DNA of 64,000 nucleotides from an uncultured Candidatus Saccharibacteria bacterium (GTDB taxonomy: Bacteria; Patescibacteriota; UBA1384; XYA2-FULL-43-10; 1-14-0-10-43-13): assembly GCA_964628585.1 (NCBI GenBank), contig CAZVMH010000001.1:64450-128449 (forward strand). Reading direction: 5' to 3'. A model generated the notes under the pieces. It was not told the origin of the DNA, did no database searches, and was given only the letters and a program-made list of their open reading frames with translations. Made by a program: the position numbers and the translations under genes. Each line of letters opens with the position of its first letter. The first letter of the stretch is position 1. This document shows, one piece after another, positions 10,534 to 34,346 of the stretch.

Positions 10534-11478
10534 CTACTCGAACACGGACACCTCATAAACACGGTCGTCGGCAGAGAAATCATATGTATCGATAATCTTA
10601 CCGCTCCAGTCTAGCTGAAGTATGCGATGGTTGTCGGCGTCAGCTGCAAAGATAGTATCGTCTTTTTGGCAGTGTATCGCGTCCTGAACCCAGGACATGC
10701 CGAGGTCTGCGCCCAACTCTTGCGTAAGCTCAAGCTGGTCGTTTAAGACCATGATCGTATTAGCAGACGTGTTGCAGAGAAGGTGCCTTCCTGCTCCTGC
10801 GTCTTTCAGGTTGTGGGGATTCTTGAGTCCCCTTAGCACAACCTGAATTGTGTCGGCTTCCTTGTCAATCAGTACAAGCTCGCCCGGATGGAAAAGTGTT
10901 GCCACGATTTTGCTTTCTTTTTCATCCACGTAGCGACAGTAATTGACGTGAGTCGTCTGGTGCAAGGAGGGGTATTCAACTCCCTGGTGTTTTGTCTCTC
11001 GATCAACGATCCTTTCGCCTCCGAGTTGATCTGACTTGTACCCATGCTCGGTAAACAAAAACGAGTAGATCGTTTTTCCAGAAGAGTCGACTTCTACTAT
11101 TGCATCGGTACCAGTGCTGGCTACCATCCAGCCAGAGCTAGTTTTTACCAAAGAATGTGGCTTGTTGAACAAGTCGTTATCTATGGTCGTCAAGATAGCC
11201 TTCTGGGATAACGATATTGCCAATATAGCACCGCTCCTAAGCGTGTTGGCCATCAACAAATCGTTAGATGCACGATAGGTTCCCGTGGGGCACTCGACTG
11301 TCATGCTCCAGGCGATTTTCTTTGTTGCCCAATCAATGATGTCTATACGGCCACCAAGTCTTTTCACGAAAGGCTTGTCGCTTCCTCTCTTTCCTTCGCT
11401 CATCAAAACGGAGTGTCTAGCCCAATGTCTCTTGAGCTGGTCGAAGTCTGTTGACAGATACGATGCCAATAAAAACAT
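10534..11478 (-). CDS. Hypothetical protein, possibly beta-propeller-like; function unknown
   Basis: 314-aa ORF in the GC-rich island, in an operon with the DUF62 gene and tyrS. No confident motif. Confidence 0.4.
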   Translation of the reverse strand: MFLLASYLSTDFDQLKRHWARHSVLMSEGKRGSDKPFVKRLGGRIDIIDWATKKIAWSMTVECPTGTYRASNDLLMANTLRSGAILAISLSQKAILTTIDNDLFNKPHSLVKTSSGWMVASTGTDAIVEVDSSGKTIYSFLFTEHGYKSDQLGGERIVDRETKHQGVEYPSLHQTTHVNYCRYVDEKESKIVATLFHPGELVLIDKEADTIQVVLRGLKNPHNLKDAGAGRHLLCNTSANTIMVLNDQLELTQELGADLGMSWVQDAIHCQKDDTIFAADADNHRILQLDWSGKIIDTYDFSADDRVYEVSVFE

Positions 11479-11490
11479 GTTTCTCCCTTC

Positions 11491-12135
11491 CTATCGACTT
11501 TCATTTATTGCATCAAGGACATCGGGGGATAGTTGTCTTAGCGCCACGCTCTCGTGTTCAAAATCGGTCTTGACCGTGAAACTGGCCGTAACAATTGCGC
11601 TTAGCGGATCGGACGATATGTTGCGATGCAGCGCAACGATAGCTTGAGCAAATTGTGGAATTATTATCGCTTGAGTCCCAACTAATCGGGCTTGCTCGAA
11701 TGCAAATAATTCCGCAGATGTGTGGAGACATTCGGATACAGGTATCGTTGTCTGGCCGCTCACAGTCTTCTTCTCGGGAAGGCATTTCACAAATTCACGA
11801 AAAGTAATGCGTTCCAGCATTGCGATTACTCCCCGCAGATATTCAGAAGATGTCATTGCAGCGCTCATTAGATGCACTGACGAATATAGTCCCGATATAG
11901 CAGAAAAAAACTCGCGGTTGAGCTCTTCTTGCTCTATGGCCGACCGTCCGAAGACTGCCATCGGCAGATAGTCATCCACAAAGATGCTGGGCTTTCTATA
12001 AGTGCAGATCTCAGACAATACTGAGTGCATTAGAAAACCAGGACCTGGTGGTCGGTTCGCCCACAGGACGATCCCGAAGGGGTGTTCAACACTGATCGGA
12101 CCCATGAATCCCTTGATATAGTCCCCAATTTTCAC
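11491..12135 (-). CDS. Hypothetical protein
   Basis: 214-aa ORF with GC-rich coding statistics and the same orientation as its neighbours. No recognisable motif. Confidence 0.4.
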   Translation of the reverse strand: MKIGDYIKGFMGPISVEHPFGIVLWANRPPGPGFLMHSVLSEICTYRKPSIFVDDYLPMAVFGRSAIEQEELNREFFSAISGLYSSVHLMSAAMTSSEYLRGVIAMLERITFREFVKCLPEKKTVSGQTTIPVSECLHTSAELFAFEQARLVGTQAIIIPQFAQAIVALHRNISSDPLSAIVTASFTVKTDFEHESVALRQLSPDVLDAINESR

Positions 12136-13354: not shown

Positions 13355-13801
13355 TTGAGGAGAAATCTGTTTCTTGCAGTAGTGCTCGTAGTTGTGATGC
13401 TAATGCTGGTCGGCTGCGGCGGTGGAGGCGGAGGGGGCTCGAATCCTCCGGGAAACCTGAACAAAGATGTGATCAAGGGAAAGATCACAGGCAACTGGGC
13501 GGGGGCGACCAATCTTGTAGTGCACTTTTACTACATTGATGATTGGGGACACGCCCAGACAGTTGCGACAGCAAACGTGAACCCAGATGGATCTTACCAG
13601 ATCACGATTCCACAGTCGGCAGAAGTGATCGGCGAGTACTACTCGCTCAATCTGTGGCGCGGTTCTATCTACGCGGGATCTGGCAAGGGTCTGTTTAGCT
13701 ACTTTGGGACCAATGATATTTGGCGCTGGGCAGAGGACGCATTTTCGCCAGACATCCCGATATCTGGACGTCAGTTCGACATTGAGTACTGGTCGCCGTA
13801 G
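13355..13801 (+). CDS. Lipoprotein (signal peptide with lipobox LVGC followed by a Gly8-Ser linker); function unknown
   Basis: N-terminal MRRNLFLAVVLVVVMLMLVGCGGGGGGGSNPPG. Short GC-rich gene. Confidence 0.55.
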   Translation: MRRNLFLAVVLVVVMLMLVGCGGGGGGGSNPPGNLNKDVIKGKITGNWAGATNLVVHFYYIDDWGHAQTVATANVNPDGSYQITIPQSAEVIGEYYSLNLWRGSIYAGSGKGLFSYFGTNDIWRWAEDAFSPDIPISGRQFDIEYWSP

Positions 13802-19023: not shown

Positions 19024-22000
19024 ATGTTTAAAAAAGTTGATCCAAAATTGAATCTTCCTGAAGAAGAGGAGAAAGTTCTTAGGTTCTGGGATGAAAACGG
19101 AATTTTTGAGAAGTCTCTCGAAAAAGATAGCCCAAAAGGCAACTTTGTTTTTTATGAGGGCCCTCCGACTGCAAATGGTCATCCTGGTATTCACCATGTG
19201 GAGGCTCGTTCTTTTAAAGATCTTTTTTGTCGTTACAAAACAATGCAGGGCTATTATGTAAAACGAAAAGCTGGTTGGGACACACATGGTTTGCCGGTTG
19301 AATTGCAGGTAGAAAAAGAACTTGGTATTTCTGGCAAGGGTCAGATTGAAACACTTGTTCCTGGCGACAAGAAAGCTTCGATTGAAAAATTTAACAAACT
19401 CTGCAGGGAATCGGTTTGGAAGTTTAAGGGCGAGTGGGAGGAAATGACAGAGCGCATGGCCTATTGGGTAGATATGAATCACCCTTACATTACATATGAT
19501 GCAAACTATATTGAGAGCATTTGGAATATAATGTCTGAGATTGATAAAAAAGGACTTCTATATCGTGGTCACAAGGTCGTGCCATATTGTAATCGTTGCG
19601 GAACTACTCTTTCATCGCATGAAGTAGCACAGGGGTACAAAAATATCGAAGAAGAATCTGTACATATAGTATTAAAGTCAAAAAAAGATCCTGCAATTAA
19701 ATTCTTGGTTTGGACTACGACTCCATGGACGCTGGCAGGCAATGCAGCGATAGCAGTAAATCCTAAGATCGTTTATAGCTTATTGCAGATAGCAGATAGC
19801 AATTCAAAAATTGTTATGGCAAAGAACAGAATAGGTGGTGTTTTAAAAAATATCGATTACAAGGTTATCGAAGAGTTTTCAGGTGAAGAGTTTGTCAGAA
19901 AATACTCTACCGGTGGACAAGATTATGAGCCAATCTACCCAGATGGTGAAAAGTTTGTCGAAGGTGGAGAAAAGTCATACAAAATCATACTTGCCAATTA
20001 TGTTTCTGATTCAGATGGAAGTGGCATAGTTCATATTGCTCCAGCTTTTGGGCAAGATGACTATGTTTGGGGTTATCAAAAAAATCAAATCAAAGTTTTA
20101 AAAACTGTCGACGAAAAGGGGACAGAGCTTGCTGGAGCGGGCAAAGGTAGTTTTGTTAAGAAAGCCGATACCGAAATAAAAGCAGACTTAGAGAAACGAG
20201 AAATTTTATTTAAAACTGAAAAAGTTAAGCACGACTATCCGTTTTGCTGGCGTTGCGACTCCCCTCTTTTATATTTTGCTCGTGACTCTTGGTATATTGC
20301 CTCAAGCAAAATTAAAAACGAACTAGTTGCGAACAACGAACACATTAACTGGAATCCCGCCTACTTGAAGCATGGCCGTTTTGGTAATTGGCTCCAGAAT
20401 ATTGAAGACTGGGCCATCTCACGCGACCGATACTGGGGGACTCCACTTCCTGTCTGGAACTGCCAAAAATGTACCAAGAAAAAAGTGGTGGGTGATTTTA
20501 TGGATTTTAACAAAAGCAAAAATGAAACTATTACAAAACTTATTTTTGTTCGACACGGCGAATCAGAAACTAATGTAGGACATTTCAATTCAATATTACA
20601 CGACAAATGGGGGTTAACTACGCTTGGTAGAACACAAGCCGAGGCTGTTGCCGAAGACCTAAAAGATATTCAGGTTGACGCACTCCTTGTCTCGCCAGTT
20701 TTACGCGCTAAGGAAACAGCCAAGATTATTGAAAATAAGATTGGAATAAAATCTGAAGAAGATGCCCTTATTTCCGAATATGATTTTGGAGAATGGTGTG
20801 AAATAAGTAGAGAAGAACGCCTAAAACTTGAAGAATATAAAAGATACAAAGCAGTAACAACGCTCGAAGAAAAGTATCAATTCAAGCTAGGTGGTGCTGA
20901 GTCAAGAAAAGACGTTGTAACACGTGTAAAAACCTTTCTAGATAAGATTATGAAAAAGTACGAAGGCAAAACTATTGTGGTGGTCAGCCATGGCGGAATT
21001 TTAGCTGCTATTATGAAAAATATTGCCGATATATCCTTAGAAGAATATGATCATGTTGAAGACCATGTTTTACAGGGTCAACCGCATATTCGATATATTA
21101 ACTCAAGGGGCAAGCTTTTTGATCCGCATAAACCATATATTGACGAAATTACTTTTGATTGCGAATGCGGTGGAGAAATGGTTCGAACGCCCGAAGTGCT
21201 AGATGTTTGGCTTGATTCCGGCACTATGCCTTTTTCTCAATACCATTTTCCATTTATTAATAATACTCTTCTCAGAGAGCAATTTCCGGCCGACTTTATA
21301 TCTGAAGCGGTTGACCAAACCAGAGGTTGGTTCTGGACCCTTCTTGCCATTTCAACAATTCTTAAAGGCGAGTCGCCATACAAGAACGTTATCTCCTTGG
21401 GTCATGTTTTGGATGAAAAAGGCAAGAAGATGTCAAAGTCTTTGGGCAATATCATTTTCCCAATGCAAGCATTCGATAAATATGGTGCCGACATTATTAG
21501 ATATTATTTCTTCTGTGTTAATGGACCAGGTGAACCAAAACTCTTTTCTGACAAAGAAGTTACTTCATTATCGAGAAATTTATTCTTAACACTTTGGAAC
21601 GTTTTTTCATTCTTTATTACTTATGCTTCAATTGATAATTTCGAACCAAAGGAAAATATTGAACGCAAAAATATTTTGGATCGATGGGTATTGGCTAAAT
21701 TTAATAAACTGGTTGAAGAAGTAAATGAAGGATTAGACCACTACGATACTTTCAAACCAAGTAACTTAATAATTGAATTTGTCGGTGAACTTTCAACTTG
21801 GTATGTAAGACGATCAAGAAGAAGATTCTGGAAGAGTGAGAACGATAGTGATAAAATTGAAGCTTTTCAAACTTTGTATGAAATTATCATACAACTAGCA
21901 AAGTTGCTGGCACCGTTCACTCCGATGTTTGCTGAAACCATTTATTCTTATTTGCGAACCGAGAAAGATCCAATTTCAATTCACCTAACCGATTATCCAA

Positions 22001-22515
22001 AACCGGTAAAAATGGATGATTTAGTAATTAAAGAAATGGATACGGCCAGAAAGATTGTAGAGGCTGGTCTGTCAAAAAGAGCAAGTGCAGGGATTAAAGT
22101 TCGTCAACCTTTAAGCAAATTAACTTACAATGGTAGTAAATTAGATTCCGAATTAGAAACAATCATTGCCGAAGAAGTAAATGTGAAGTCTGTAGAAAAC
22201 GACTCAAAAATCACAGAGGTAATAATCGACACAGAAATTTCTCCAGAACTGAAAATGGAAGGGACTGCCAGAGAGATAATCCGAAACATCCAATCGCTAC
22301 GAAAGAAGACAGGTTTTGAAGTTGAAGACAGGATCGGTATGGTCTATCAAACAGAATCAAAATTTCTAGCAGATACTCTGGAAAAATTTGAAGAAGTAAT
22401 TAGCAAAGAAATTTTAGCCAAATCGATCAAATCTGGTAAATTAAAATCCGAAGGGACAGAAGAATTCACCATCGATGGCGAGAAAATTCAGATTGGAATT
22501 AACAAAAATAATTGA
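19024..22515 (+). CDS. ileS: Isoleucyl-tRNA synthetase, type 2 (Thermus/eukaryote-like), with a ~190-aa histidine-phosphatase (PGAM-like) domain inserted between the two halves of the zinc knuckle
   Basis: IleRS type-2 motifs PPTANGHPGIHH and KKMSKSLGN, an editing-domain motif GSGIVHIAPAFGQDDY, and a Zn knuckle C480QKC...C713EC. Between the knuckle halves sits a complete histidine-phosphatase domain (IFVRHGESETN, VSPVLRAKET, VVVSHGGI). Total length is 1163 aa. Confidence 0.85.
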   Translation: MFKKVDPKLNLPEEEEKVLRFWDENGIFEKSLEKDSPKGNFVFYEGPPTANGHPGIHHVEARSFKDLFCRYKTMQGYYVKRKAGWDTHGLPVELQVEKELGISGKGQIETLVPGDKKASIEKFNKLCRESVWKFKGEWEEMTERMAYWVDMNHPYITYDANYIESIWNIMSEIDKKGLLYRGHKVVPYCNRCGTTLSSHEVAQGYKNIEEESVHIVLKSKKDPAIKFLVWTTTPWTLAGNAAIAVNPKIVYSLLQIADSNSKIVMAKNRIGGVLKNIDYKVIEEFSGEEFVRKYSTGGQDYEPIYPDGEKFVEGGEKSYKIILANYVSDSDGSGIVHIAPAFGQDDYVWGYQKNQIKVLKTVDEKGTELAGAGKGSFVKKADTEIKADLEKREILFKTEKVKHDYPFCWRCDSPLLYFARDSWYIASSKIKNELVANNEHINWNPAYLKHGRFGNWLQNIEDWAISRDRYWGTPLPVWNCQKCTKKKVVGDFMDFNKSKNETITKLIFVRHGESETNVGHFNSILHDKWGLTTLGRTQAEAVAEDLKDIQVDALLVSPVLRAKETAKIIENKIGIKSEEDALISEYDFGEWCEISREERLKLEEYKRYKAVTTLEEKYQFKLGGAESRKDVVTRVKTFLDKIMKKYEGKTIVVVSHGGILAAIMKNIADISLEEYDHVEDHVLQGQPHIRYINSRGKLFDPHKPYIDEITFDCECGGEMVRTPEVLDVWLDSGTMPFSQYHFPFINNTLLREQFPADFISEAVDQTRGWFWTLLAISTILKGESPYKNVISLGHVLDEKGKKMSKSLGNIIFPMQAFDKYGADIIRYYFFCVNGPGEPKLFSDKEVTSLSRNLFLTLWNVFSFFITYASIDNFEPKENIERKNILDRWVLAKFNKLVEEVNEGLDHYDTFKPSNLIIEFVGELSTWYVRRSRRRFWKSENDSDKIEAFQTLYEIIIQLAKLLAPFTPMFAETIYSYLRTEKDPISIHLTDYPKPVKMDDLVIKEMDTARKIVEAGLSKRASAGIKVRQPLSKLTYNGSKLDSELETIIAEEVNVKSVENDSKITEVIIDTEISPELKMEGTAREIIRNIQSLRKKTGFEVEDRIGMVYQTESKFLADTLEKFEEVISKEILAKSIKSGKLKSEGTEEFTIDGEKIQIGINKNN

Positions 22516-22546
22516 TATCGAACGTAAGTTTGGGCATAATCAAATT

Positions 22547-23935
22547 ATGGAGATGAAACTTTTCAATACATTGGGACGCAAACAGGAAATCTTTAAGCCG
22601 ATCAAAAAAAATGAAGTCGGTATTTATTCCTGTGGCCCAACAGTTTATTGGAACCAGCACATCGGAAACATGTATGCCTACGTTGAGTGGGATTTGCTTA
22701 ATCGAACTCTAAAATATCTTGGCTATAAAACAACCTGGGTCATGAATATTACTGATGTAGGCCATTTAACTTCAGACGAAGACACCGGAGAAGACAAACT
22801 GGAAAAGGGCGCCAAGAGCGAGGGGATCTCTGTCTGGAAGATCGCCGATAAATATATTGGTCAATTTAAGGAAAGCATGAATCTTCTTAATATTAAAGAA
22901 CCAGACGAATTGCCTCGAGCAACAGACCATATTGCAGAACAAATCAAGATGATAGAGGAGATGGAAAAAAGAGGCTTTACCTATAAAACTAAAACAGGAA
23001 TTGTTTTTGATACTTCTAAATTCCCTGATTATGCCAAGTTTGCCAATTTAAATCTTGAGGAACAAAAAGCTGGCTCTCGTGTCGAAGTAGATGAGGAAAA
23101 GAAGAATCCTTGGGATTTTTTGCTCTGGATTACAAATCAGCCAAATCATGTAATGCAATGGGATTCACCTTGGGGCAAGGGCTTCCCTGGCTGGCATATT
23201 GAATGTACAGCCATGTCAACAAAGTATCTTGGCAATAAATTTGATATTCATACTGGTGGTAAAGAACATATCCCAGTTCATCATACCAACGAAATTGCTC
23301 AGGCTTACGGAGCTTTTGGCGAGCAGACAGCCAACTATTGGCTTCACAACGAGTGGGTTACCTTTGGTGGAGATAAAATCGCAAAGAGTGCTGGCAGTGC
23401 AATTTTAATTACAGATTTAGAGGAAAAGGGGTTCTCTCCGCTTTCTTATCGATATTTGATTATGACCTCACATTACCGGACCGGTTTAAATTTTACCTGG
23501 GAAAGCTTGGAGAGTGCACAAATCGCTCTAAATCGATTAAAAAATTCAATTAAAAAACTTCAGGAAGCATCAAACGATAATATCAAATCCAATCCAAAGG
23601 AAGACATAAACTGGGATGCAAAGTTCAAAAATGCGATCGCAGACGATCTGGGCACTCCACAAGCCATTGCAATTTTATGGGACATGTTAAAAGGGGATAT
23701 GAGCGCCAAAGAAAAAATCGAATTAGTGGCAAAGTGGGATAAAGTCTTCGGGCTAGACTTGTTAGAAATCAAAAAAGAAGAAATACCTGCCGAAGTATCC
23801 GAATTGGCTAAAGAACGCGCCAATGTCAGAAAAGAGAAAGCTTGGCAAAAGTCAGATGAACTAAGAGATAAAATATCGGAACTAGGTTACGAGGTGATAG
23901 ACACTTCAAGAGGATTCGAAATTAGAAAGAAATAA
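22547..23935 (+). CDS. cysS: Cysteinyl-tRNA synthetase
   Basis: The N-terminus MEMKLFNTLGRKQEIF..CGPTVYWNQHIGN (HIGH region) and a KIAKSAG (KMSKS-like) motif. The start could be 22547 or 22553; the longer ORF from 22475 overlaps ileS. Confidence 0.8.
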   Translation: MEMKLFNTLGRKQEIFKPIKKNEVGIYSCGPTVYWNQHIGNMYAYVEWDLLNRTLKYLGYKTTWVMNITDVGHLTSDEDTGEDKLEKGAKSEGISVWKIADKYIGQFKESMNLLNIKEPDELPRATDHIAEQIKMIEEMEKRGFTYKTKTGIVFDTSKFPDYAKFANLNLEEQKAGSRVEVDEEKKNPWDFLLWITNQPNHVMQWDSPWGKGFPGWHIECTAMSTKYLGNKFDIHTGGKEHIPVHHTNEIAQAYGAFGEQTANYWLHNEWVTFGGDKIAKSAGSAILITDLEEKGFSPLSYRYLIMTSHYRTGLNFTWESLESAQIALNRLKNSIKKLQEASNDNIKSNPKEDINWDAKFKNAIADDLGTPQAIAILWDMLKGDMSAKEKIELVAKWDKVFGLDLLEIKKEEIPAEVSELAKERANVRKEKAWQKSDELRDKISELGYEVIDTSRGFEIRKK

Positions 23936-23949
23936 CGAAAGGACATAGC

Positions 23950-24951
23950 ATGAAAAAAGTCATACTTACAGGCGACAGACCAACTGGAAAACTTCATCTA
24001 GGACATTTTATAGGCTCCCTTCAAAATAGAGTAAAACTTCAGGACGAATATGAGGAGTATATTCTTATCGCAGATATGCAAGCTCTGACTGACAATGCTG
24101 AAAATCCAGAAAAAGTTAGTAGCAATATTTTAGAGGTTGTCTTAGATTATTTGGCAGTTGGAATTGACCCAGATAAAGCCACGATCTGTCTTCAATCAGA
24201 GCTGCCAGCGCTTGCAGAGTTAACAATGTACTATTTAAATCTTGTTACATTGGCTCGTCTGCAAAGGAATCCAACAGTAAAAGATGAAATGAAGCAAAAA
24301 GGTTTTGAGGCCAATGTTCCGGTCGGTTTTTTAACTTACCCTATTAGTCAAGCAGCCGATATTACTGCTTTTAAAGCCGGTTTTGTTCCAGTGGGAGAAG
24401 ATCAGGTACCCGTTTTAGAACAGACGAACGAGATAGTTAAAAAATTTAATGCTAGTTATAAGACAGATGTTTTAGTTGAATGCGAGCCAATTTTGTCGAA
24501 GGTTGGAAGACTTCCTGGCACAGATGGCAGTGCTAAGATGAGCAAGTCACTAGAAAATTGCATTTATCTTTCTGACTCTGATGAGGAAATAAAGAAAAAG
24601 GTAATGAGCATGTACACAGATCCTGCCCATATCAAAGCAGAAGATCCAGGCAAGATTGAAGGTAACACAGTGTTCATTTATCTTGATGCCTTTGATCTAG
24701 AGAAAGAGGCAGTACAAAAACTAAAAGAACAATATCAAAAAGGTGGCTTAGGCGACGTGGCGGTTAAAGAAAGATTGGTTGGCGTATTGCAGAATCTAAT
24801 TAAACCAATTAGAGAAAGAAGAGAAGCGCTAGCAAAAGATCCTAAAAAAATAATGGAAATTGTTAAAGCCGGTACGATAAAAGCGCAAAAAGTGACCGAA
24901 GTAACTCTCGAAGAGGTCAAAAAGGCAATGAAATTAAACTATTTTAACTAA
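23950..24951 (+). CDS. trpS: Tryptophanyl-tRNA synthetase
   Basis: 333-aa ORF with ILTGDRPTGKLHLGHFIG (HIGH) and KMSKSLEN (KMSKS) motifs and TrpRS-like length. Confidence 0.85.
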   Translation: MKKVILTGDRPTGKLHLGHFIGSLQNRVKLQDEYEEYILIADMQALTDNAENPEKVSSNILEVVLDYLAVGIDPDKATICLQSELPALAELTMYYLNLVTLARLQRNPTVKDEMKQKGFEANVPVGFLTYPISQAADITAFKAGFVPVGEDQVPVLEQTNEIVKKFNASYKTDVLVECEPILSKVGRLPGTDGSAKMSKSLENCIYLSDSDEEIKKKVMSMYTDPAHIKAEDPGKIEGNTVFIYLDAFDLEKEAVQKLKEQYQKGGLGDVAVKERLVGVLQNLIKPIRERREALAKDPKKIMEIVKAGTIKAQKVTEVTLEEVKKAMKLNYFN

Positions 24952-24952
24952 T

Positions 24953-27151
24953 ATGAAACAGTTCGAAAAAACCTGGCAACACGATAAATTTGAAGAAAAA
25001 ATATACTCTGATTGGGAAAAATCGGGATTTTTTCGGCCAGAATACAGAATACAGAATACAGATAACAGTAAAACTGAACTTCAATATGATCGTGAAAAAG
25101 ACGGGAATCCTTTTGTTATTGCAATGCCACCACCAAATGTTACGGGTAAACTTCACCTGGGTCATTCACTGGTGTTAACACTTGAAGACATTATGATTCG
25201 GTTTCATAGAATGAAAGGGCAGCCTTCTCTTTGGATTCCTGGGATGGACCACGCTGGTATTGCGACCCAAACGGTGGTAGATAAAGCATTAAAGAAAAAA
25301 GGCATCAACAAAAACGATCTTGGACGCGAAAAGTTTATTGAGGAAGTTTGGAAATGGAAAAAGGAATATGGCGACATTATTCTAGAACAGACTCGCAAAA
25401 TGGGTGCCTCCTGTGACTGGTCGCGTGAACGATTCACTATGGATGAGGGATTATCAAATTCTGTAAAAGTAGCTTTTGTTGATTTCTATAAAAAAGGTTT
25501 AATCTATCGCGGTGAATACGTTGTGAACTGGTGTCCTAGATGCCAAACTGCCATTGCTGACGACGAAGTAGAACATATTGAGCAAAAAACCAAGCTTTAC
25601 TATTTTAAGTATGACAAAAATTTCCCAATCACCATTGCCACAACCAGACCAGAAACAAAGTTGGGCGATGTTGGGGTGGCGGTTAATCCAAATGATAAAA
25701 GATACAAAAATTACATCGGTAAAAAATTCGAAGTAAATATTGACGGCGTAAAGCGAAAGATTCTTGTTTTTGGCGATAGATCGGTAGATGAAAAATTTGG
25801 CACAGGCGCCGTTGGCGTAACTCCGGCCCACTCACTTATCGACTGGAAAATGGCAGAGGAGAACAAACTTCCCGTAATAAAAGTTATAGACAAATATGGC
25901 AAAATGACCGAGGAGGCAGGTAAATACGCAGGACTTAAAGCAAAAGAAGCGGGCGATAAATTAGTTGAATATTTTAAAGCAAATGGTCTTCTAGAAAAAG
26001 AAGAAGACTACGACAACAATCTTTCCACCTGTTATAGATGCAACACCGCCATTGAACCAATTCCTTCACTCCAATGGTTTGTAAAAATGAAACCTTTGGC
26101 CGAAAAGGCCAAAGGGGCGGTTAAATCCGGGCAAATTAAAATAATTCCAGAGCAGTATGAAAAAGTATACTTTCACTGGATGGACAATATCCGAGACTGG
26201 TGTATCTCGCGGCAACTTTGGTGGGGACATCAAATTCCAGTTTGGTATAAAGGCAAAGAAGTTTATTGCGGACTGGAAGCTCCAAAAGGAAACGGTTGGG
26301 AGCAGGATCCGGATGTTTTAGACACCTGGTTCTCGTCTGGTCTCTGGCCGTTTTCGACATTGGGTTGGCCCGATAAAACAAAAGATTACAATTACTTTTT
26401 TCCGAACACTGTAATGGAAACGGGAAAAGACATTCTTTTTTTCTGGGTTGCTAGAATGATTATGATGAGTTTGGAACTAACCGGCAAGATTCCGTTTGAA
26501 ACAGTTTATTTGCATGGTATGGTTCAAGATGAGCATAACAAGAAAATGAGCAAATCCTCTGGCAATGCTCTTGACCCACTGACGCTGATTGAAAAATATG
26601 GCACAGACGCAATTAGAATGTCCTTGGTTGTTGGGGCGACTCCTGGCCAGAATATTGCCATGAGCGACGCAAAGATTAAAGGCTACAGAAATTTCTCCAA
26701 TAAAATATGGAATGCCTCACGTTTTGTAACACTTAGAGTTTCAGAGGGCGATCTGCAGGCAGGTGAAGTTGGTCCTCAAAAAATTGAAAACCTAAATATT
26801 GATGCCAAAACATTGACCGAAGCAGACAAAGAAATTTTGTCTTTGCATAAAGAAATCGTTTCGGCCGTAACAGAAAAAATCGAAAAGTTTCGTTTCTCGC
26901 AAGCGGGCGAAGAGCTTTACGAATATTTCTGGCATCAATTTTGTGATATTTACATCGAAAAAGCAAAATTACAGCTTGAAGGAGAAAATAAGGAAAATAC
27001 TAAAAAGATTTTAATTAAAATACTATCAGAATCACTTGCCATGCTTCACCCTTTCGTACCATTTGTTACAGAAGCGGTCTGGCAAGAACTCCGCGAAATT
27101 TACCCAAAACTTTCAAAATCAATAATGATCTCTAGCTGGCCCAATATTTAA
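24953..27151 (+). CDS. valS: Valyl-tRNA synthetase (short form, 732 aa, lacking the C-terminal coiled-coil)
   Basis: PPPNVTGKLHLGH, the editing-domain motifs TTRPETKLGD and GTGAVGVTPAHSLID, and KMSKSSGN. An in-frame tandem heptamer (gaataca)x3 lies near the 5' end. Confidence 0.8.
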   Translation: MKQFEKTWQHDKFEEKIYSDWEKSGFFRPEYRIQNTDNSKTELQYDREKDGNPFVIAMPPPNVTGKLHLGHSLVLTLEDIMIRFHRMKGQPSLWIPGMDHAGIATQTVVDKALKKKGINKNDLGREKFIEEVWKWKKEYGDIILEQTRKMGASCDWSRERFTMDEGLSNSVKVAFVDFYKKGLIYRGEYVVNWCPRCQTAIADDEVEHIEQKTKLYYFKYDKNFPITIATTRPETKLGDVGVAVNPNDKRYKNYIGKKFEVNIDGVKRKILVFGDRSVDEKFGTGAVGVTPAHSLIDWKMAEENKLPVIKVIDKYGKMTEEAGKYAGLKAKEAGDKLVEYFKANGLLEKEEDYDNNLSTCYRCNTAIEPIPSLQWFVKMKPLAEKAKGAVKSGQIKIIPEQYEKVYFHWMDNIRDWCISRQLWWGHQIPVWYKGKEVYCGLEAPKGNGWEQDPDVLDTWFSSGLWPFSTLGWPDKTKDYNYFFPNTVMETGKDILFFWVARMIMMSLELTGKIPFETVYLHGMVQDEHNKKMSKSSGNALDPLTLIEKYGTDAIRMSLVVGATPGQNIAMSDAKIKGYRNFSNKIWNASRFVTLRVSEGDLQAGEVGPQKIENLNIDAKTLTEADKEILSLHKEIVSAVTEKIEKFRFSQAGEELYEYFWHQFCDIYIEKAKLQLEGENKENTKKILIKILSESLAMLHPFVPFVTEAVWQELREIYPKLSKSIMISSWPNI

Positions 27152-27175
27152 AATAGACCAAAGGAATTATCGGAG

Positions 27176-27865
27176 GTGTTAATGATAGGCATGAAACCTG
27201 GACCGGAAGTTGGAGGAGAATATAAATATTTAACAAACAGAACAGATAGAGAGGCAATTTTTGATTGTACTAAAAATTTAGTTGAATATGTTTATAACAA
27301 TCAAATTCCTCATATTGTATTATTTGATCGAAGTGCAAGACCGATGAGTACTGCAATATTGAAATATTGGATGGAAACTTATCCAAATGATCCTCGACCA
27401 GAGATAGAATTTATCAATCCTGATGGTTTTCGTGATTTTGCCTTTTATAGACAAAAAGATGCTGATTTAGAGAGTCATAAGAACGTTGTGAAGCAAGAAT
27501 TTGTACAAAATTACCCAAAATTAATGGCGGACAGAGATAAATCGATTTTACTTTTTGATGTTTGTATACATTCAGGCGATACAATGGAGCCAGTTGTTAT
27601 TGCTCTTAAAGAATTCGGCTTTACAAATTTAATAATTGGTTCGGCTAAATCTGAAGATATGGGATCGGCAGTTACACCAGATGTCACATTCATTGATGAA
27701 TCTCAGAGTCTGTGTGAACCTTTCCCTCAAAGCGTAGTTGAGAAAACAAACGATAGTGTTCACACCAAGAGACGGGTTGCAAATAGCCAATTTCTAAAAG
27801 AGGCTCGTGGTGCTAGACAGGAGATTAAACAAATGATTGAAGAAGGTACTGATAAAACCATATAG
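27176..27865 (+). CDS. Phosphoribosyltransferase-domain protein (PRT type I fold), function unknown
   Basis: 229-aa ORF with a PRPP-binding-like motif (ILLFDVCIHSGDTM) and a good SD (GGAGGTG). Confidence 0.45.
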   Translation: MLMIGMKPGPEVGGEYKYLTNRTDREAIFDCTKNLVEYVYNNQIPHIVLFDRSARPMSTAILKYWMETYPNDPRPEIEFINPDGFRDFAFYRQKDADLESHKNVVKQEFVQNYPKLMADRDKSILLFDVCIHSGDTMEPVVIALKEFGFTNLIIGSAKSEDMGSAVTPDVTFIDESQSLCEPFPQSVVEKTNDSVHTKRRVANSQFLKEARGARQEIKQMIEEGTDKTI

Positions 27866-27901
27866 AAATGATTTTTCTAGCAATTTTCGATTTCGTTTTT
27901 G

Positions 27902-27930
27902 TTGACTTTATTTTTATTGGTGGTTACTAT
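27902..27930 (+). promoter_or_regulatory. Sigma70-like promoter (TTGACT, 17-nt spacer, TACTAT) upstream of purF
   Basis: -35 at 27902-27907 and -10 at 27925-27930. purF starts with GTG at 27988, preceded by an AGGAGG SD. Confidence 0.45.
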
Positions 27931-27987
27931 CTAAGTAACGGGTCTTAAGTAAAAAAGATTAAGCAAACCAAAACCTAGGAGGCAAAT

Positions 27988-29523
27988 TTGTGTGGAATAT
28001 TCGGAACTATTTGCTGTAATAAAGATTGTCAAAACTCTCTAAATACCGCTAGCATGACATACAGGGGGTTAACGGGACTTCAACATAGAGGTCAAGAAGC
28101 GGCTGGAATTTCTGTAAGCAATGGGAAAGAAATATTCACAAAAAAAGGTTCAGGCTGGGTTTCTCATGTTTTTAATAAAAAAATATTAGAGAAGATGGAG
28201 GGAAATTTAGCGATTGGTCATAACAGATACGGTACGACAGGTGGCTCTACTGAAAAAAATGCTCAACCTTTCTATAAAAAAGAAAATTACGAATTAGCAT
28301 TGGCTCACAATGGGAACTTGGTTAATAGCCATGCTCTGCGACAGGAGCTAGAAAAAGAAGGGGCACATTTCGATTCAACCACTGATTCAGAAGTCATAAC
28401 AGAAATGATTGCTCGATCAAAAAAACCTACAATTGAAAAAGCAGTTATAGATGTATGCACCAAGATTCGTGGTGCATATTCTTTATTAATCCTCACAAAA
28501 AACAAAATTATTGCCGTCCGCGATCCGCACGGTATCCGTCCTCTTTCTCTTGGTTATAAAGGAAATCAGAACAGTCCAGATTTTTATTTTTTAGCTTCAG
28601 AAACTGCTGCTTTCAATGTGACTGGATCTCATTATATTCGCGAAATTCAGCCAGGTGAGGTTCTTTCTATAAGTCCACAAGGTAGAAGATCATTTAGACT
28701 TCCTGAAGAAGCAAATCTTAAACTTTGTATTTTCGAACTGATATATTTAGCTCGACCAGATAGTATATTTCATATCACTAAACCAGACGGTAAAACTATT
28801 CCAATCGGCGTTCATCAGGCCAGATTGAATATGGGCGCGCAGTTGGCAGAGGAAAATATTGCAGATAAAGGATTCGATATGGTCGCACCGGTTCCAGACT
28901 CGGGCAACCCAGCTGCAATTGGTTTTGCCAAAGAGAGTAAAATTCCTTTTGGTCAGGCTTTTACGCGTGACAGATACTATGCCGAAAGAACATTTATTAA
29001 CCCAGATCAAGATTCGAGGAAAGAGGGAGTTCTTCAGAAACTTTTTCCGCTTACCGATCAACTTTACAATGTGCGAATGGTCTTAGTTGAGGACTCCATA
29101 GTTCGCGGAACAACACTTGGTGTTTTGGTTCGAACAGCAAAAGAAGCAGGTGCTTGTGAAGTACATGCTAGAATTTCTTCTCCGCAATATCGTAATCCTT
29201 GCCATTTAGGAATTGACACTCCAGAAAAAGAAAAATTAATAGCAGCTAATATGGACGACGAAGAGATTGCTGAATATGTTAGTGCTGATAGCGTGAAATT
29301 CCTCTCGCTAGAAGGACTCATAAAAGCGCTCGGCATACCAAAAACTTGCTTCTGTTGTGCTTGCTTTGATGGTAAATATCCAGTCGAACCAGAGGAAGAA
29401 GAAAAAGGTAAGTTTATTCTTGAGAAAAAATCAAAAGATATAACATTAAAATCATCAGTCCAAGAGCCACAAAATCTAGAACAAAAAGGTACAAAAAAAT
29501 CCCCCCAACCTGTATTATTTTAA
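27988..29523 (+). CDS. purF: Amidophosphoribosyltransferase (glutamine-PRPP amidotransferase; Ntn-hydrolase Cys2, PRTase domain, C-terminal 4Fe-4S Cys cluster)
   Basis: An N-terminal (M)CGIFG, type-II glutamine amidotransferase and PRT motifs, and a C-terminal CFCCAC...DGKYP segment. Confidence 0.8.
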   Translation: MCGIFGTICCNKDCQNSLNTASMTYRGLTGLQHRGQEAAGISVSNGKEIFTKKGSGWVSHVFNKKILEKMEGNLAIGHNRYGTTGGSTEKNAQPFYKKENYELALAHNGNLVNSHALRQELEKEGAHFDSTTDSEVITEMIARSKKPTIEKAVIDVCTKIRGAYSLLILTKNKIIAVRDPHGIRPLSLGYKGNQNSPDFYFLASETAAFNVTGSHYIREIQPGEVLSISPQGRRSFRLPEEANLKLCIFELIYLARPDSIFHITKPDGKTIPIGVHQARLNMGAQLAEENIADKGFDMVAPVPDSGNPAAIGFAKESKIPFGQAFTRDRYYAERTFINPDQDSRKEGVLQKLFPLTDQLYNVRMVLVEDSIVRGTTLGVLVRTAKEAGACEVHARISSPQYRNPCHLGIDTPEKEKLIAANMDDEEIAEYVSADSVKFLSLEGLIKALGIPKTCFCCACFDGKYPVEPEEEEKGKFILEKKSKDITLKSSVQEPQNLEQKGTKKSPQPVLF

Positions 29524-29540
29524 TTTATCCAATAGTACTA

Positions 29541-29725
29541 ATAGTCTCTTATTTTAGCTTCAAAAGCTTTTTCTATAGAACTAATTATTTTTTCAACAAT
29601 TTCTTCGGCTTCTTTGTCGGTCAGAGTTTTTGATTCAGCTTGAAGATAAATGTGGTAAGCTACATTCTTTTTGTCTTCGCCAAATTTGTCGGAGGCGAAC
29701 TCATCGAACAATTCAACTCGGTTTA
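29541..29725 (-). pseudogene. Orphan duplicate of the pheT 3' end (~170 bp; encodes an in-frame remnant ...EEIVEKIISSIEKAFEAKIRDY* with its own stop codon); repeat copy A
   Basis: A 104-bp core (29590-29693) is 100% identical to 31364-31467 inside pheT. The flanks are about 75-80% identical, with conservative codon changes (ALDAKIRNY to AFEAKIRDY). Confidence 0.6.
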
Positions 29726-29776
29726 TGATATTTGGCTGATCTAAGAATTATGCCCAGAGAATACTCATATCAATTT

Positions 29777-31306
29777 TTAATCCGGCCAGTCCATTCCGGC
29801 CCAGCCATAATCATTTTTAAACATGTTTTTAACACATTGACTTGATTTCAAATATATATTCCTAATGTCTTCACCAGTTTTGTGATATTCTTGTTGGGCA
29901 TTAACAAACTCTCTTGAACAAGAAGGGTTTGGATCAGAATCATGGACATAGACAACTGTTCCGATTGATGTTAAATTAAAAAGTTTTTTGGCATCATGGT
30001 CAACAAGTCCTATACATCCAGCAGTTCCCATTCCCGCGGCATGAAAACCGTAATTGCCTACAAAGTTTTGCCAGTAAGGCATATCCATCTGCCAGATTGA
30101 AGAAAACCGATGTTCTGCTTTAGATAAAATTCTATAAGTGCCCGATGGTGCGTTGTCATCATAACCTCCATCCATAAAGCGAGTGTTGAAAATTATTACA
30201 TTATTTTTATCTACCATGACGACTTTATGTGCAAAAAGATCAACATCAATATATGCCTCATGAAATCTGCCAGTGGTGCTAAAATTGATAGTAGAAACGG
30301 GAAGTGGAATTGTCACATCACTTTTAGTAATATTATCCATAATTAACTGTGAAGTTTTTAAAATATCAAGAGCTTTCCCAACTCTTCCATTCTGAATGAC
30401 AGCATTGCTTACATAATCAATCCTTTTGTCTATAACACTGACATTATTTTGACTCGCGATAGTACTTGAATATATTTTGATTTTTTCAATATCAAAATAA
30501 GGTTCGTAGTTCTTGGTTTTATCGAACGATAGCCACGAAAGAAGATTTGTTTTTGTGACAGGGATGATTTTTGATTCGTAACTTAGTTTGATATTTCTGT
30601 TTGAGAGAGCAAGAGCTTTTTCTAGGCCAGGGGTCAGGTCGCTAATAACTAGTAATGGTTTTTCTTCATCAAGCGGAATATTTAATTCTTCAGTTTGTTT
30701 ACTATAAAATCCTTGATAAATTTTGTCATATAAACTTTCAATATTGATACGATATCCGATTTCCTCTGGTTTAATAGAAATTTTATCACCGTCGATAACG
30801 AAACTTGCATCAATAGATGATTTCTCAAATTCATTTTTGATTGTATCCAAAAAAGCATTTCTTGTGTTGTCAATAATAATTGGTTTTGGTTGAACATCTT
30901 TACCTTTGAATACGATTTTATAAAAATCAATTATTCCAGCAATACTGTTGGTCCGGCCCAAATTATAAGTTTCATTTAAAGAAGCAGAATTATCAATTAA
31001 AAAACCTGTGCCAAAATAGGTCGATTTGAAAATCTTGTCATTTGCTTTAAAAGTTATCTCATTCTTTAGTAATATTTCGTTTTGTTCCGAAATAATCTGA
31101 TCTGCTTCACTTTTGGTCTTGCCAGAGAGTTCGATGCCCGAATACTTAATGTTGTTTATTATTTTGTCTTTATAAAAATAACGGTAGGCCAAAACAAAAG
31201 AGACTGATAATATGAAGAGAACTACCAAAATGGCAACCGTATAAATCAATGGCTTTAATATTTTTGAGAAATTATTCACATCTATATTATATATTTTTTG
31301 AACCAT
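29777..31306 (-). CDS. L,D-transpeptidase (YkuD) domain protein with an N-terminal TM anchor
   Basis: 509-aa ORF with the catalytic motif FHAAGMGTAGCIGL (H..G..C) near the C-terminus and an N-terminal signal-anchor. It sits 5 bp downstream of pheT on the same strand. Confidence 0.65.
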   Translation of the reverse strand: MVQKIYNIDVNNFSKILKPLIYTVAILVVLFILSVSFVLAYRYFYKDKIINNIKYSGIELSGKTKSEADQIISEQNEILLKNEITFKANDKIFKSTYFGTGFLIDNSASLNETYNLGRTNSIAGIIDFYKIVFKGKDVQPKPIIIDNTRNAFLDTIKNEFEKSSIDASFVIDGDKISIKPEEIGYRINIESLYDKIYQGFYSKQTEELNIPLDEEKPLLVISDLTPGLEKALALSNRNIKLSYESKIIPVTKTNLLSWLSFDKTKNYEPYFDIEKIKIYSSTIASQNNVSVIDKRIDYVSNAVIQNGRVGKALDILKTSQLIMDNITKSDVTIPLPVSTINFSTTGRFHEAYIDVDLFAHKVVMVDKNNVIIFNTRFMDGGYDDNAPSGTYRILSKAEHRFSSIWQMDMPYWQNFVGNYGFHAAGMGTAGCIGLVDHDAKKLFNLTSIGTVVYVHDSDPNPSCSREFVNAQQEYHKTGEDIRNIYLKSSQCVKNMFKNDYGWAGMDWPD

Positions 31307-31311
31307 AGAAT

Positions 31312-33561
31312 CTAATAGTTTCGGATTTTTGCGTCGAGAGCTTTTTCTATAGAGCTAATAATCTTTTCAACAATTTCTTCGGCTTCTTTGTCGGTCAGAG
31401 TTTTTGATTCAGCTTGAAGATAAATGTGGTAAGCTACATTCTTTTTGTCTTCGCCAAATTTGTCGGAAGCGAACTCATCAAAAAGTTCGACTCTATTAAT
31501 TAGTTCCGATTCTTCATATATCAAATTTGTAATTTTGTCTGCTTCAACACTGGCGTCGACGATAAAAGCGACGTCTCGAGTAATGGATGGGTATTTTGAA
31601 ACGGCTCGGTAATGAATTTGTTTGTCAGAAAGTGTGAGCTCAATATTATCTTTATTAATTTTTGAGTTCTTATTAATATCATCAATTTTGATCTCAAAGG
31701 TATAGGTGACCGGTTTTTTGATTTTAAATTTAAGCAGATCATCTCGAGAAAGTTCGTTAACTTGAATATCAAGATCCAATTTCAATTTATCTTTCAAATT
31801 AGAAATAGCAGATTCGATTTCTTTTTTGGCGTTCTTTCCGCTTGAGGCAAGGGCCAAATGGGCTTCTTCGGAGCTGGTTGTGAAAACATTGCCAATTTCG
31901 AAGATTAAAACTGGGTCAAAAATCGGATTTTTGGCAACGGCTTTCAAAAGTGAAGGCAATAAAAATTTTCGCAGATATTTATTTTCTGGTTGAACTGGAT
32001 TAGCAACTTCTAATAGATCGGTTTTGTCTAATTTAAGCGCTTCCAAGTCGGCTTCGCTTAAAAACGAATAAGTGTTAACTTCAGAAAAGCCGGCCTCAAC
32101 TAAAACATCTTTCATGTGCTCTTTAAAATGGTAAATTCCACTTTTTGGCTTTTCTGTCTTTGGTGTCTCAACCTTGGCAATATTATTCAAATCAAATATT
32201 CGCCCAATTTCCTCGGCCAAATCTTGCCAGATGGTAACATCATGACGCCATGAAGGGGCTTGAACCATATTATCTTTCAGTACGAAGCCCAAGTTTTCAA
32301 GATATTTCTTGGCGTCAGCCTCTTTGATGTCTGTTCCAAGTAAATTATTAATGCGCTCCAATTCAAATGGAACCCAAGTGTTTTCATAAGTGCTAGCAAT
32401 ATTTGTTTTCTTTCCAGTAATTTTCCCACCACAGAGTTCAACTATCAGACTAGTCGCTTTGTCTAAGGCTTTCTCGGTCATCTCAGGGTCAATTCCTCTT
32501 TCAAAACGGTAGCTAGCTTCAGTTGCCAGCCCCAACTTTTTAGCAGTTTGGCGAATATTTACAGGATTAAATTCAGCAGATTCCAAAATTATCGAAGTTG
32601 TGTTATCGTCAACTTCAGAATTTAGTCCACCCATAACACCAGCTAGCGCAACGGCTTTTTCTGGATCGGCAATCACGAGCATTTCTTCACTCAAAATTCG
32701 TTTCTCATTATCAAGAGTGATAAATTCTTCATCTTTTTTGGCTTCTCGAACAACAATATTGTTATCAGATATTTTCTTGGCATCAAAAGCATGAAGGGGT
32801 TGGCCTAAATCAAACATTATGTAGTTGGTGATATCTACCAAATTATTGATCGATTTTCCGTCCATTGCCTCAATTTTTTTGACTAGCCAGTCAGGAGAAG
32901 GACCAATTTTAATATCAGAAATGGTGATTCCACAGTAGCGAGGACATTTTTCAGGAGATAAAATTTCAATTAAAAAGTCAGAATCCTTGTCATCGATTTT
33001 CGGAATATCAAGATCCAATTTCTTGTCCAATACGGCTGAAAGTTCTCGCGCCATACCAACATGCGAAAGACAATCGCCACGATTTGGCGTGATTTCAAGG
33101 TCAAAAATTGCATCGCTATCGAGTAGATCGACAACTGATTTGCCCAACGGTGTATTGGCGGGCAATTGCATTATGCCTTCGTGATTTTCGGAAATGCCGA
33201 GTTCCTTTTCACTGCAAAGCATGCCGAAGGATTTTTCACCTCGGATCAAAGCTTCTTTTATCTCAAAATCAGAAAATTTAGTACCAATCTTGGCTAGTGG
33301 CACAATCTGATCGACAGCAATATTTGGGGCGCCACAGACAATATTAAATTCTTCTTTGCCGTCGGTAACCCTGGCAAGTTGAAGTTTGTCGGCATTAGGA
33401 TGTTTTTTGACTTCTAAAATTTTTACGGCGACAACTTTTTTGTCAATTTTGCCCAAAACTTCATCTACTAGAGAGCCTGAAAAAGTCAAAAGATCGGCAA
33501 TCTCTTCGTTTGATTTATCTGTCTTAACATATTCAGTTAACCAACTTCGTAATATCTTCAT
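31312..33561 (-). CDS. pheT: Phenylalanyl-tRNA synthetase beta subunit
   Basis: 749-aa ORF with the N-terminus MKILRSWLTEYV and PheT-like B3/4, B5 and FDX-ACB segments. It is coupled to pheS through an ATGA overlap. Its 3' end contains repeat copy B (31331-31500). Confidence 0.85.
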   Translation of the reverse strand: MKILRSWLTEYVKTDKSNEEIADLLTFSGSLVDEVLGKIDKKVVAVKILEVKKHPNADKLQLARVTDGKEEFNIVCGAPNIAVDQIVPLAKIGTKFSDFEIKEALIRGEKSFGMLCSEKELGISENHEGIMQLPANTPLGKSVVDLLDSDAIFDLEITPNRGDCLSHVGMARELSAVLDKKLDLDIPKIDDKDSDFLIEILSPEKCPRYCGITISDIKIGPSPDWLVKKIEAMDGKSINNLVDITNYIMFDLGQPLHAFDAKKISDNNIVVREAKKDEEFITLDNEKRILSEEMLVIADPEKAVALAGVMGGLNSEVDDNTTSIILESAEFNPVNIRQTAKKLGLATEASYRFERGIDPEMTEKALDKATSLIVELCGGKITGKKTNIASTYENTWVPFELERINNLLGTDIKEADAKKYLENLGFVLKDNMVQAPSWRHDVTIWQDLAEEIGRIFDLNNIAKVETPKTEKPKSGIYHFKEHMKDVLVEAGFSEVNTYSFLSEADLEALKLDKTDLLEVANPVQPENKYLRKFLLPSLLKAVAKNPIFDPVLIFEIGNVFTTSSEEAHLALASSGKNAKKEIESAISNLKDKLKLDLDIQVNELSRDDLLKFKIKKPVTYTFEIKIDDINKNSKINKDNIELTLSDKQIHYRAVSKYPSITRDVAFIVDASVEADKITNLIYEESELINRVELFDEFASDKFGEDKKNVAYHIYLQAESKTLTDKEAEEIVEKIISSIEKALDAKIRNY

Positions 33562-33563
33562 AA

Positions 33564-34346
33564 TTAAAATTGCTTAAGGAATCTTAAGTCACCGCTCTTA
33601 AAAAGACGAATTTCTTTAATACCGTATTTGATCATGATGGCTCGTTCAATGCCGGGACCAAAAGCGTAACCAGAATATTCATTCGAATCAATTCCCATAT
33701 TTTCTATAACTTTAGGGTGAACCATACCAGCGCCACCTAACTCAAACCATTTGCCACGGAATTTCATCTCAAATTCGATTGAAGGTTCGGTAAAAGGAAA
33801 GTGGTGAGGACGAAATCGTAAAATGGTGTCTTCTCCGAGCAATTCTTTATATAGTTTTTCCAAAATATCGAAAAGCTGTCCCATCGAGACTTTTTTATCA
33901 ATATAAAGACCCTCAATCTGCATGAAGGTATTTTCGTGTCCAGAATCGGTTGCTTCATTTCTATAACATACACCGGGTACGATAACTTTGATTGGTGGCT
34001 TATGACTTTCGCCATATTTTACCTGCGAGTTGGAAGTTTGAGTTCGAAGTAACCTGCCATCGGTTAGCCAAAAGGTATCCTGAACATCTCGAGATGGGTG
34101 ACTAGCAGGCACATTGAGCGCATCAAAGTTGTACCATTCAGTATCAACTTCTGTTCCCTCATAAACGTCAAAACCGTAGCGTTCAAAAAAAAGCACCGCT
34201 TGGCGAATTGCACTAGTAATCGGATGTAAATTTCCCTTAATCATTACTATTATAGTAACAAAAGTTTGTGCTAAGTTCAATTGAGGTATTGCATTAATAT
34301 AGTAGAAGGCATATTTTGAAACTAATGAGGGAAAGAATAAAGACAA
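33564..34346 (-). CDS. pheS: Phenylalanyl-tRNA synthetase alpha subunit, N-terminally truncated (catalytic core only; the probable true start is MIKGNLHPITS at 34244, giving ~226 aa)
   Basis: Class II motifs: GNLHPIT (motif 1 region), FDALNVPASHPSRD, and the motif 2 and 3 regions (FRPHHFPFTEPS, GFAFGPGIERAIM). The first 34 aa of the long ORF are hydrophobic non-protein-like sequence. Confidence 0.8.
   Translation of the reverse strand: MSLFFPSLVSKYAFYYINAIPQLNLAQTFVTIIVMIKGNLHPITSAIRQAVLFFERYGFDVYEGTEVDTEWYNFDALNVPASHPSRDVQDTFWLTDGRLLRTQTSNSQVKYGESHKPPIKVIVPGVCYRNEATDSGHENTFMQIEGLYIDKKVSMGQLFDILEKLYKELLGEDTILRFRPHHFPFTEPSIEFEMKFRGKWFELGGAGMVHPKVIENMGIDSNEYSGYAFGPGIERAIMIKYGIKEIRLFKSGDLRFLKQF

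Follow-up and report, generated by a model that had tools for sequence, protein, structure and literature searches.

A probable C-terminal displacement scar at the pheT gene of a Patescibacteria genome, with an accessory L,D-transpeptidase gene as cargo

In a 64,000-nt stretch of contig CAZVMH010000001.1 (GCA_964628585.1; hereafter the window) from an uncultured, low-GC member of the Patescibacteria (candidate phyla radiation, CPR), the 3' end of pheT is present twice, and the two copies bracket a single gene, ldt, for a predicted L,D-transpeptidase. The gene pheT encodes the beta subunit of phenylalanyl-tRNA synthetase, and the nearest named pheT belongs to Candidatus Berkelbacteria, at about 50% identity. 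We read the arrangement as a probable scar of C-terminal displacement, in which the resident pheT tail took up, by recombination, a foreign pheT 3' end together with the adjoining ldt, probably in the form of a circle. The same locus occurs in another assembly with a single pheT tail and without ldt, and the two alleles are related by an exact crossover within the repeat.

A repeat search placed the two copies at 29538-29726 (copy A) and 31312-31500 (copy B), each 189 nt long, with 18 differences between them (90% identical) and a period of 1774 nt. An earlier note made from the letters of this DNA had described a direct repeat of the pheT 3' end around ldt of about 170 nt; self-search of the window confirms the repeat and extends it to 189 nt, with a TAG stop codon as the end point of both copies. 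No other direct repeat of 40 nt or more was found in the whole window, and when second copies of its 48 open reading frames (ORFs) were sought within it by tblastn, the pheT tail was the sole non-paralogous one. Alignment and the list of differences define a core of 104 nt with no difference at all (29590-29693 and 31364-31467), exactly where the earlier note had put it. We call the sequences on either side upA and downA in copy A, and upB and downB in copy B. The 5' flanks differ at 8 of 33 nt (76% identical) and the 3' flanks at 10 of 52 (81%), close to the 75-80% first estimated. If the 18 differences were scattered randomly over 189 nt, an identical run of 104 nt would have a probability of P = 4e-6; for third codon positions alone the value is P = 9e-5.

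Copy B is the true C-terminus of pheT, as had been proposed: it forms the 3' end of a gene whose 749-aa product has the full set of five PheT Pfam domains. The gene closes with the 17 codons of the 'B' tail (31312-31363), ...KALDAKIRNY*. Copy A had been called an in-frame pheT remnant with its own stop codon, and it is one. Its translation, ...INRVELFDEF...KAFEAKIRDY*, comprises the last 62 PheT residues and matches positions 36-94 of the Pfam FDX-ACB domain (E = 3.9e-15). An in-frame TAA upstream leaves only a TTG-initiated ORF of 57 codons (29538-29711). We regard the displaced remnant as putatively silent; it may still be transcribed, with no terminator predicted between ldt and the remnant.

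The allele without ldt lies on a 4405-nt contig of the Joint Genome Institute (JGI), Ga0565070_009040 (L007), on which pheT is followed after 14 nt by a convergent purF-like gene. In the window, the same 14-nt gap separates the end of the purF-like gene from the copy A stop. The PheT protein of this contig (P0004) is the closest to the window's PheT in the database, and it ends in ...KAFEAKIRDY. When positions 29590-31363 are removed from the window, what is left equals L007 with 0 differences over 4405 nt, and a three-way alignment resolves the single pheT tail of L007 into upB, core and downA. With no other difference between them, a reciprocal exchange in the core is all that separates the filled allele from the empty one, and L007 is, as judged from this alignment, the reciprocal product of a crossover inside it. 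The earlier note had tied the insertion of ldt beside pheT either to duplication of the pheT tail or to recombination between the copies. The link to recombination holds, with L007 lacking exactly one period and carrying a hybrid tail; the fate of the proposed duplication is taken up below.

The far side of the insertion is seen in several assemblies. The junction from ldt through upA, core and downA into purF recurs on seven other JGI contigs (L083-L089), from seven samples of the same project, at 99.9-100% identity to the window. On these seven contigs and on a 187-kb NCBI contig the 57-codon remnant ORF is called as a gene; in one JGI variant (P0124, on L083) a Ser replaces an Ala at the boundary between flank and core. 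JGI names the remnant ORF (P0124, P0126, P0127) 'phenylalanyl-tRNA synthetase beta subunit', most likely an annotation artefact. A chimeric join through the core cannot explain the ldt/upA junction, which is 33 nt away from the identical stretch. Look-ups via purF returned no records, and look-ups via pheS and a 227-aa neighbouring protein returned no new contigs that span the junctions.

The 104-nt core breaks short-read assemblies at the pheT locus. A contig from the Logan collection (L001, SRR12447078_120903, 1804 nt) runs from 31393 to 29590 as core-downB-ldt-upA-core, and its first and last 30 nt are identical, the k-1 overlap that a loop at the repeat leaves in an assembly graph with k=31. 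A second Logan contig, L090, extends precisely 30 nt into the core before it ends, which is what a branch in the graph would produce. Circular-contig detectors would flag L001 as a 1774-bp circular element.

The divergence between the two tails bears on where they came from. Outside the core, 16 of 28 codons differ, 13 of them synonymously and three by conservative replacements (F/L, E/D and D/N); the 10 nt differences between downB and downA are mostly synonymous. By the Nei-Gojobori method the flanks have a dN of 0.06 and a saturated dS, and the 34 core codons have a dS of 0. A remnant decaying in place would not give 13 synonymous to three non-synonymous codons, and on this codon pattern both tails evolved as working pheT ends in diverged lineages. 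Nor can the flank divergence have arisen in place, because the filled and empty alleles carry no single-nucleotide polymorphisms (SNPs). By the same sequence comparison, one tail-equivalent was imported from another lineage. The idea that the pheT tail was duplicated when ldt was inserted does not survive this result, since synonymously saturated flanks with a dN of 0.06 mark an imported rather than a copied sequence. A test of which flank is native, based on the amino-acid states of relatives, was uninformative, with one ancestral-like and one derived residue in each tail.

For the identical core, the earlier note had offered ongoing gene conversion or an embedded element such as an RNA structure or terminator module. 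The second proposal finds no support. Shuffled sequence folds about as well as the core (z = -0.74 in the sense and -0.99 in the antisense direction), no terminator-like sites occur in 29300-31700, and Rfam gives no match in the window. Across 65 related pheT tails, every alternative occurs at the synonymous positions of the codons that make up the core. We rejected an RNA element or terminator on these four lines: fold scores, terminator scan, Rfam and free synonymous variation among the 65 homologues. An origin by recombination or gene conversion is consistent with the evidence, and core identity is best read as a recombination tract.

The cargo is, by prediction, an L,D-transpeptidase of the YkuD family. 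Its YkuD domain scores 41.5 bits against a Pfam cut-off of 23.4, and an alignment with PDB 5bmq shows that the catalytic His (GFH) and Cys (TAGC) are retained; in the usual SHGC motif, the His directly before Gly-Cys is replaced by Ala. An exhaustive HMMER search returned 924 relatives, of which one reaches 50% identity and none of the others more than 31%. The closest (P0002) lies at 3462-4955 of another Patescibacteria contig (L005; also on L006), between ribosomal-protein genes and secY. It is on the opposite strand in a conserved ribosomal-protein/secY/adk cluster, between genes for a 1090-aa FG-GAP-like protein and a DUF975 protein, and appears to have been inserted as an accessory gene in the spc operon region of that genome. 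No flanking repeats were found around the homologue in L005. Of 76 other Patescibacteria pheT loci, not one carries a second pheT tail or lies within 6 kb of an ldt homologue. The nearest genome in GTDB has a gene for an Asp/Asn/Lys-type class II synthetase after pheT, instead of ldt. In that genome (Candidatus Berkelbacteria metagenome-assembled genome JAPLVL010000035, L002 8001-10111) pheT appears as two ORFs, 8001-9143 and 9317-10111; a frameshift, a stop codon or an error of sequencing may have split it. We conclude from these comparisons of gene context that ldt is an accessory gene, mobile in context and not a conserved neighbour of pheT. Compositional foreignness of ldt was considered and rejected, its GC content of 0.326 and GC content at third codon positions (GC3) of 0.276 being at the norm of the window. 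Because base composition is typical, the donor of the ldt segment may have been related to the host, as these values suggest.

We favour a single crossover with a circle as the route by which this structure arose. A contiguous segment from a related lineage, comprising the last ~0.2 kb of pheT, ldt 5 nt downstream and ~25 nt more, would have closed on itself as a 1774-bp circle, upA-core-downB-ldt-z. One reciprocal, Campbell-type crossover between chromosome and circle inside the 104-nt core, carried out by RecA-type homologous recombination of the host, would then turn the empty allele X-upB-core-downA-Y into the filled allele X-upB-core-downB-ldt-z-upA-core-downA-Y. After integration, pheT would consist of the resident body, upB, the core and the imported downB, and would be followed by ldt, presumably co-transcribed with pheST. 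The upA flank, the second core and the resident downA would have been shunted downstream as a silent remnant of 63 codons beside purF. The unit could loop out again via the two 104-nt cores and restore the empty allele. No dedicated recombinase would be needed, and Pfam detects no integrase, transposase or recombinase domain in the ~48 ORFs of the window.

Several points weigh against this reading. The sequences do not fix the direction, gain or loss, between two alleles without SNPs. The empty allele is a single 4.4-kb contig from a low-coverage sample, and an assembler that skips a loop at a 104-nt repeat could yield it. The circle junction upA-core-downB has not been observed as such; L001 is compatible with it and no proof of it, its identical 30-nt ends being equally expected from the integrated form. 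No donor was found, that is, no intact pheT with upA and downB followed by ldt. The best pheT in a GTDB scan has 53% identity and the next-best in the protein database 60%; a search with the tail alone returned only the remnant ORFs and one match at 63%, and the best tail in a metagenome scan reached 73%. Finally, an extra assumption is needed to explain how lineages with synonymously saturated flanks can be identical throughout a stretch of 104 nt. Candidate causes are mismatch correction in the heteroduplex, or earlier cycles of integration and excision that swapped the core; with either, the circle would carry a core identical to that of the host.

Of the alternatives, homology-facilitated illegitimate recombination (HFIR) of a linear fragment is the main one, and we hold it to be unlikely. 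Donor pheS/pheT-downB-ldt and ~25 nt would have replaced most of the recipient pheT, with a homologous anchor upstream and an illegitimate joint in the recipient pheT near 29750. The remnant upA-core-downA would then be the last 63 or more codons of the recipient gene, the cores would have been converted later, and L007 would be a secondary deletion between them. The spacer between ldt and copy A is where such a joint would be sought. The residues FLDQPNI just past its TAA are still pheT-consensus-like in a comparison by eye with 120 pheT tails, and because of this resemblance the pheT fragment that was imported on the circular reading probably ends near 29750. Some junction must fall within 29727-29776, either a donor-to-recipient joint as in HFIR or a donor-to-donor joint as in circularisation. 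HFIR gives the same final structure without the need for a circular intermediate; it is documented in naturally transformable bacteria and has been proposed for the displacement of type VI secretion system (T6SS) effectors with 3' remnants (PMC5361080). However, it takes three events (HFIR, a 104-nt conversion and a deletion) where the circular route takes one, it is orders of magnitude rarer than homologous recombination (PMC5361080), its conversion tract must spare both flanks, and the searches turned up no lineage in which an intact pheT has upA...downA.

Displacement by a single crossover could also be an ongoing process. An integrase-free, 'homology-addressed' cassette, now active, would be a 1774-bp unit that cycles between the chromosome and a free circle and moves between Patescibacteria cells. 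Its address would be a 104-nt piece of the 3' end of an essential gene, and each landing would swap the end of the host gene. Repeated integration and excision at varying crossover points would account for the identical core, and the SNP-free alleles would be snapshots of the cycle. We consider this doubtful. As a separate question, recurrence of the phenomenon was looked for and rejected, with no second tail or ldt in the 76 pheT loci, no other gene-tail remnant in the window and no repeats in L005.

More doubtful still is an origin of the unit from a site-specific integrative element, of which it would be a remnant. The pheT 3' end would have been the target of a tyrosine or serine recombinase, with a substitute end carried in attP and the repeats as attL and attR; the element would since have decayed to a single cargo gene, or would be mobilised in trans like integrase-less att-flanked islets. 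The direct repeats do end precisely where the target gene has its stop codon, the inserted DNA restores the gene end, and the empty site is exact, with a single hybrid repeat. Yet neither the 1.77-kb unit nor the 64-kb window contains a recombinase, viral contigs lack the core sequence and ldt relatives, and upA, coding-type with only synonymous changes, is more readily understood as a captured piece of chromosome than as an attP arm that evolved. Two other kinds of carrier were tried and rejected. For a transposon or insertion sequence, the repeat is 189 nt long and diverged, there are no convincing terminal inverted repeats at the unit boundaries (those present are weak and distant) and there is no transposase. 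For a phage or virus, IMG/VR contains neither relatives of ldt nor an exact match to a 42-nt piece of the core.

Local duplication of the cell's own pheT tail at ldt insertion, with flanks that diverged in place and a core kept by conversion or a functional element, is very improbable. It is the simplest reading of a direct repeat around an inserted gene, and an identical core is compatible with conversion, but the synonymous divergence of the flanks is saturated while the alleles show no differences in 4.4 kb, the codon ratio is not that of a non-coding remnant, and no constraint on the core by structure or sequence was found. Least credible of all is an assembly artefact, a two-strain chimera or expanded repeat whose copies are not on one molecule: the source is a metagenome-assembled genome, the core is a de Bruijn branch point where L001 and L090 end, and the link between the pheT body and downB is known from the window's own assembly alone, but the copies differ and so are no simple expansion of one sequence, the ldt 3'-upA junction lies outside the core, and the junction across the core into purF is reproduced in the seven independent JGI assemblies and in Logan.

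Table 1. Features of the pheT locus, in window coordinates.
Feature	Coordinates	Strand	Basis or remark
pheS (phenylalanyl-tRNA synthetase alpha subunit)	33564..34346	-	Pfam tRNA-synt_2d, E = 1.9e-80; directly upstream of pheT
pheT (beta subunit, 749 aa, intact)	31312..33561	-	Five PheT Pfam domains; translation
Copy B 5' flank (upB)	31468..31500	-	Resident pheT sequence; identical in empty-site contig L007
Copy B 104-nt core	31364..31467	-	Identical to 29590-29693; putative crossover tract
Copy B 3' flank (downB), including TAG stop	31312..31363	-	Read as imported pheT end; absent from L007
ldt, predicted membrane-anchored L,D-transpeptidase, 509 aa	29777..31306	-	Pfam PG_binding_4 and YkuD; starts 5 nt past the pheT (copy B) stop
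Junction spacer, ldt stop to copy A, 50 nt	29727..29776	-	In-frame TAA at about 29748-29750
Copy A 5' flank (upA)	29694..29726	-	pheT-like, foreign type; 8 nt differences from upB, all synonymous
Copy A 104-nt core	29590..29693	-	Identical to copy B core
Copy A 3' flank (downA), including TAG stop	29538..29589	-	Putative displaced resident pheT end ...KAFEAKIRDY*; working pheT end in L007
One repeat period, 1774 nt	29590..31363	-	Presence/absence unit: window (filled) versus L007 (empty)
purF-like class-II glutamine amidotransferase gene, convergent	27988..29523	+	Pfam GATase_6/7; right-hand border of the site

JGI calls a 226-aa pheS product with a start at 34244, and gene calls on L007 and L090 support the pheS assignment. 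The locus is part of a dense cluster of synthetase genes (19024-34346), with IleRS-like, CysRS, TrpRS/TyrRS-type and Leu/Val-type class I genes, and with pheT and pheS on the other strand. The IleRS-like protein (19024-22515, 1163 aa) holds a complete His_Phos_1 domain at residues 506-678, in the middle of its match to the class I catalytic domain (E = 3.3e-35), an unusual domain insertion. Elsewhere in the window, four blocks (96-2257, 8533-12135, 13355-13801 and 61349-61729) have a GC content of 0.46-0.53 and a GC3 of up to 0.65, against ~0.30-0.40 for the rest. They hold genes for a TyrRS-type synthetase (8533-9726, a second class Ic synthetase), a radical SAM protein and a PNP_UDP_1 phosphorylase, and may be horizontally acquired, mis-binned or chimeric sequence. 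A full-length heliorhodopsin gene lies at 60550-61305 (Pfam E = 1.4e-100).

The pheT locus adds one more case to a process already described, C-terminal displacement or Campbell-type gene insertion, and its mechanism is ordinary. What is unusual is its setting, an essential housekeeping gene of a Berkelbacteria-like CPR bacterium, caught as a presence/absence polymorphism. An accessory cell-wall gene appears to have been gained, and to be losable, at an essential aminoacyl-tRNA synthetase gene without mobile-element machinery, leaving pheT chimeric but intact. The case can be tested with sequencing reads, as an instance of gene flux driven by homologous recombination in unculturable organisms.

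Integration at the 3' ends of genes is familiar from tRNA and tmRNA islands, integrative and conjugative elements in housekeeping genes, the staphylococcal cassette chromosome SCCmec at rlmH/orfX and integrase-less att-flanked islets. The pheT site shares with these islands the flanking direct repeats, a repeat that ends at the gene end, a substitute 3' end and an empty site with one repeat. It differs from them in that no integrase was found in unit or window, in that the repeat is a diverged coding homologue of 189 nt and not a short identical att core, and in that the insert is a single gene. In IS26 translocatable units and other Campbell-type circles, a homology segment with its cargo integrates beside a resident copy and leaves direct repeats around the cargo. 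Here the homology segment is part of a host gene instead of an insertion sequence, and there is no transposase.

For the T6SS effector-immunity modules of Vibrio cholerae, displacement by HFIR has been proposed (Kirchberger et al. 2017, PMC5361080); for HFIR itself that paper cites de Vries and Wackernagel (2002) and Prudhomme et al. (2002). As there, the pheT locus has a homology anchor in a conserved upstream segment, a new module that has come in and an old 3' remnant pushed downstream. HFIR works with a linear fragment that is joined illegitimately at one point, whereas the alleles here differ by an exact reciprocal crossover, and no illegitimate joint can be identified in the recipient sequence. 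Because the difference is an exact reciprocal crossover, a single crossover with a circle explains the alleles more directly than HFIR does.

The closest parallel is the displacement of rhs tips, for which it has been proposed that the old tip is pushed downstream when a circular intermediate integrates by homologous recombination; there, too, attached and dissociated copies have identical core sequence (Jackson et al. 2009, PMC2935791). As in rhs and the orphan cdiA-CT/rhs-CT modules related to it, a same-strand fragment downstream of an intact gene repeats the 3' region of that gene, with an identical core and differing tips and with cargo between the new tip and the displaced old one. RecA-type recombination with a small circle and no integrase is likewise proposed for both, the repeats permitting later excision, and the undisplaced state exists in a relative, downA being the working pheT end in L007 (a single contig). 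The differences lie in what is exchanged. The gene encodes an essential aminoacyl-tRNA synthetase subunit and no polymorphic toxin of the rhs, cdiA or maf kind. Its tips (52 nt, 10 differences) are still homologous, in fact orthologous and functionally equivalent, with three conservative substitutions across the diverged flanks, whereas the tips of rhs genes are toxin domains that share no homology. As cargo there is a cell-wall enzyme rather than an immunity gene, there is a single displacement and no array, and the identity covers no more than 104 nt, beyond which the homologous sequence has diverged in either direction. Read as a C-terminal displacement, the pheT locus would extend the logic of this process from polymorphic toxin loci to a housekeeping gene.

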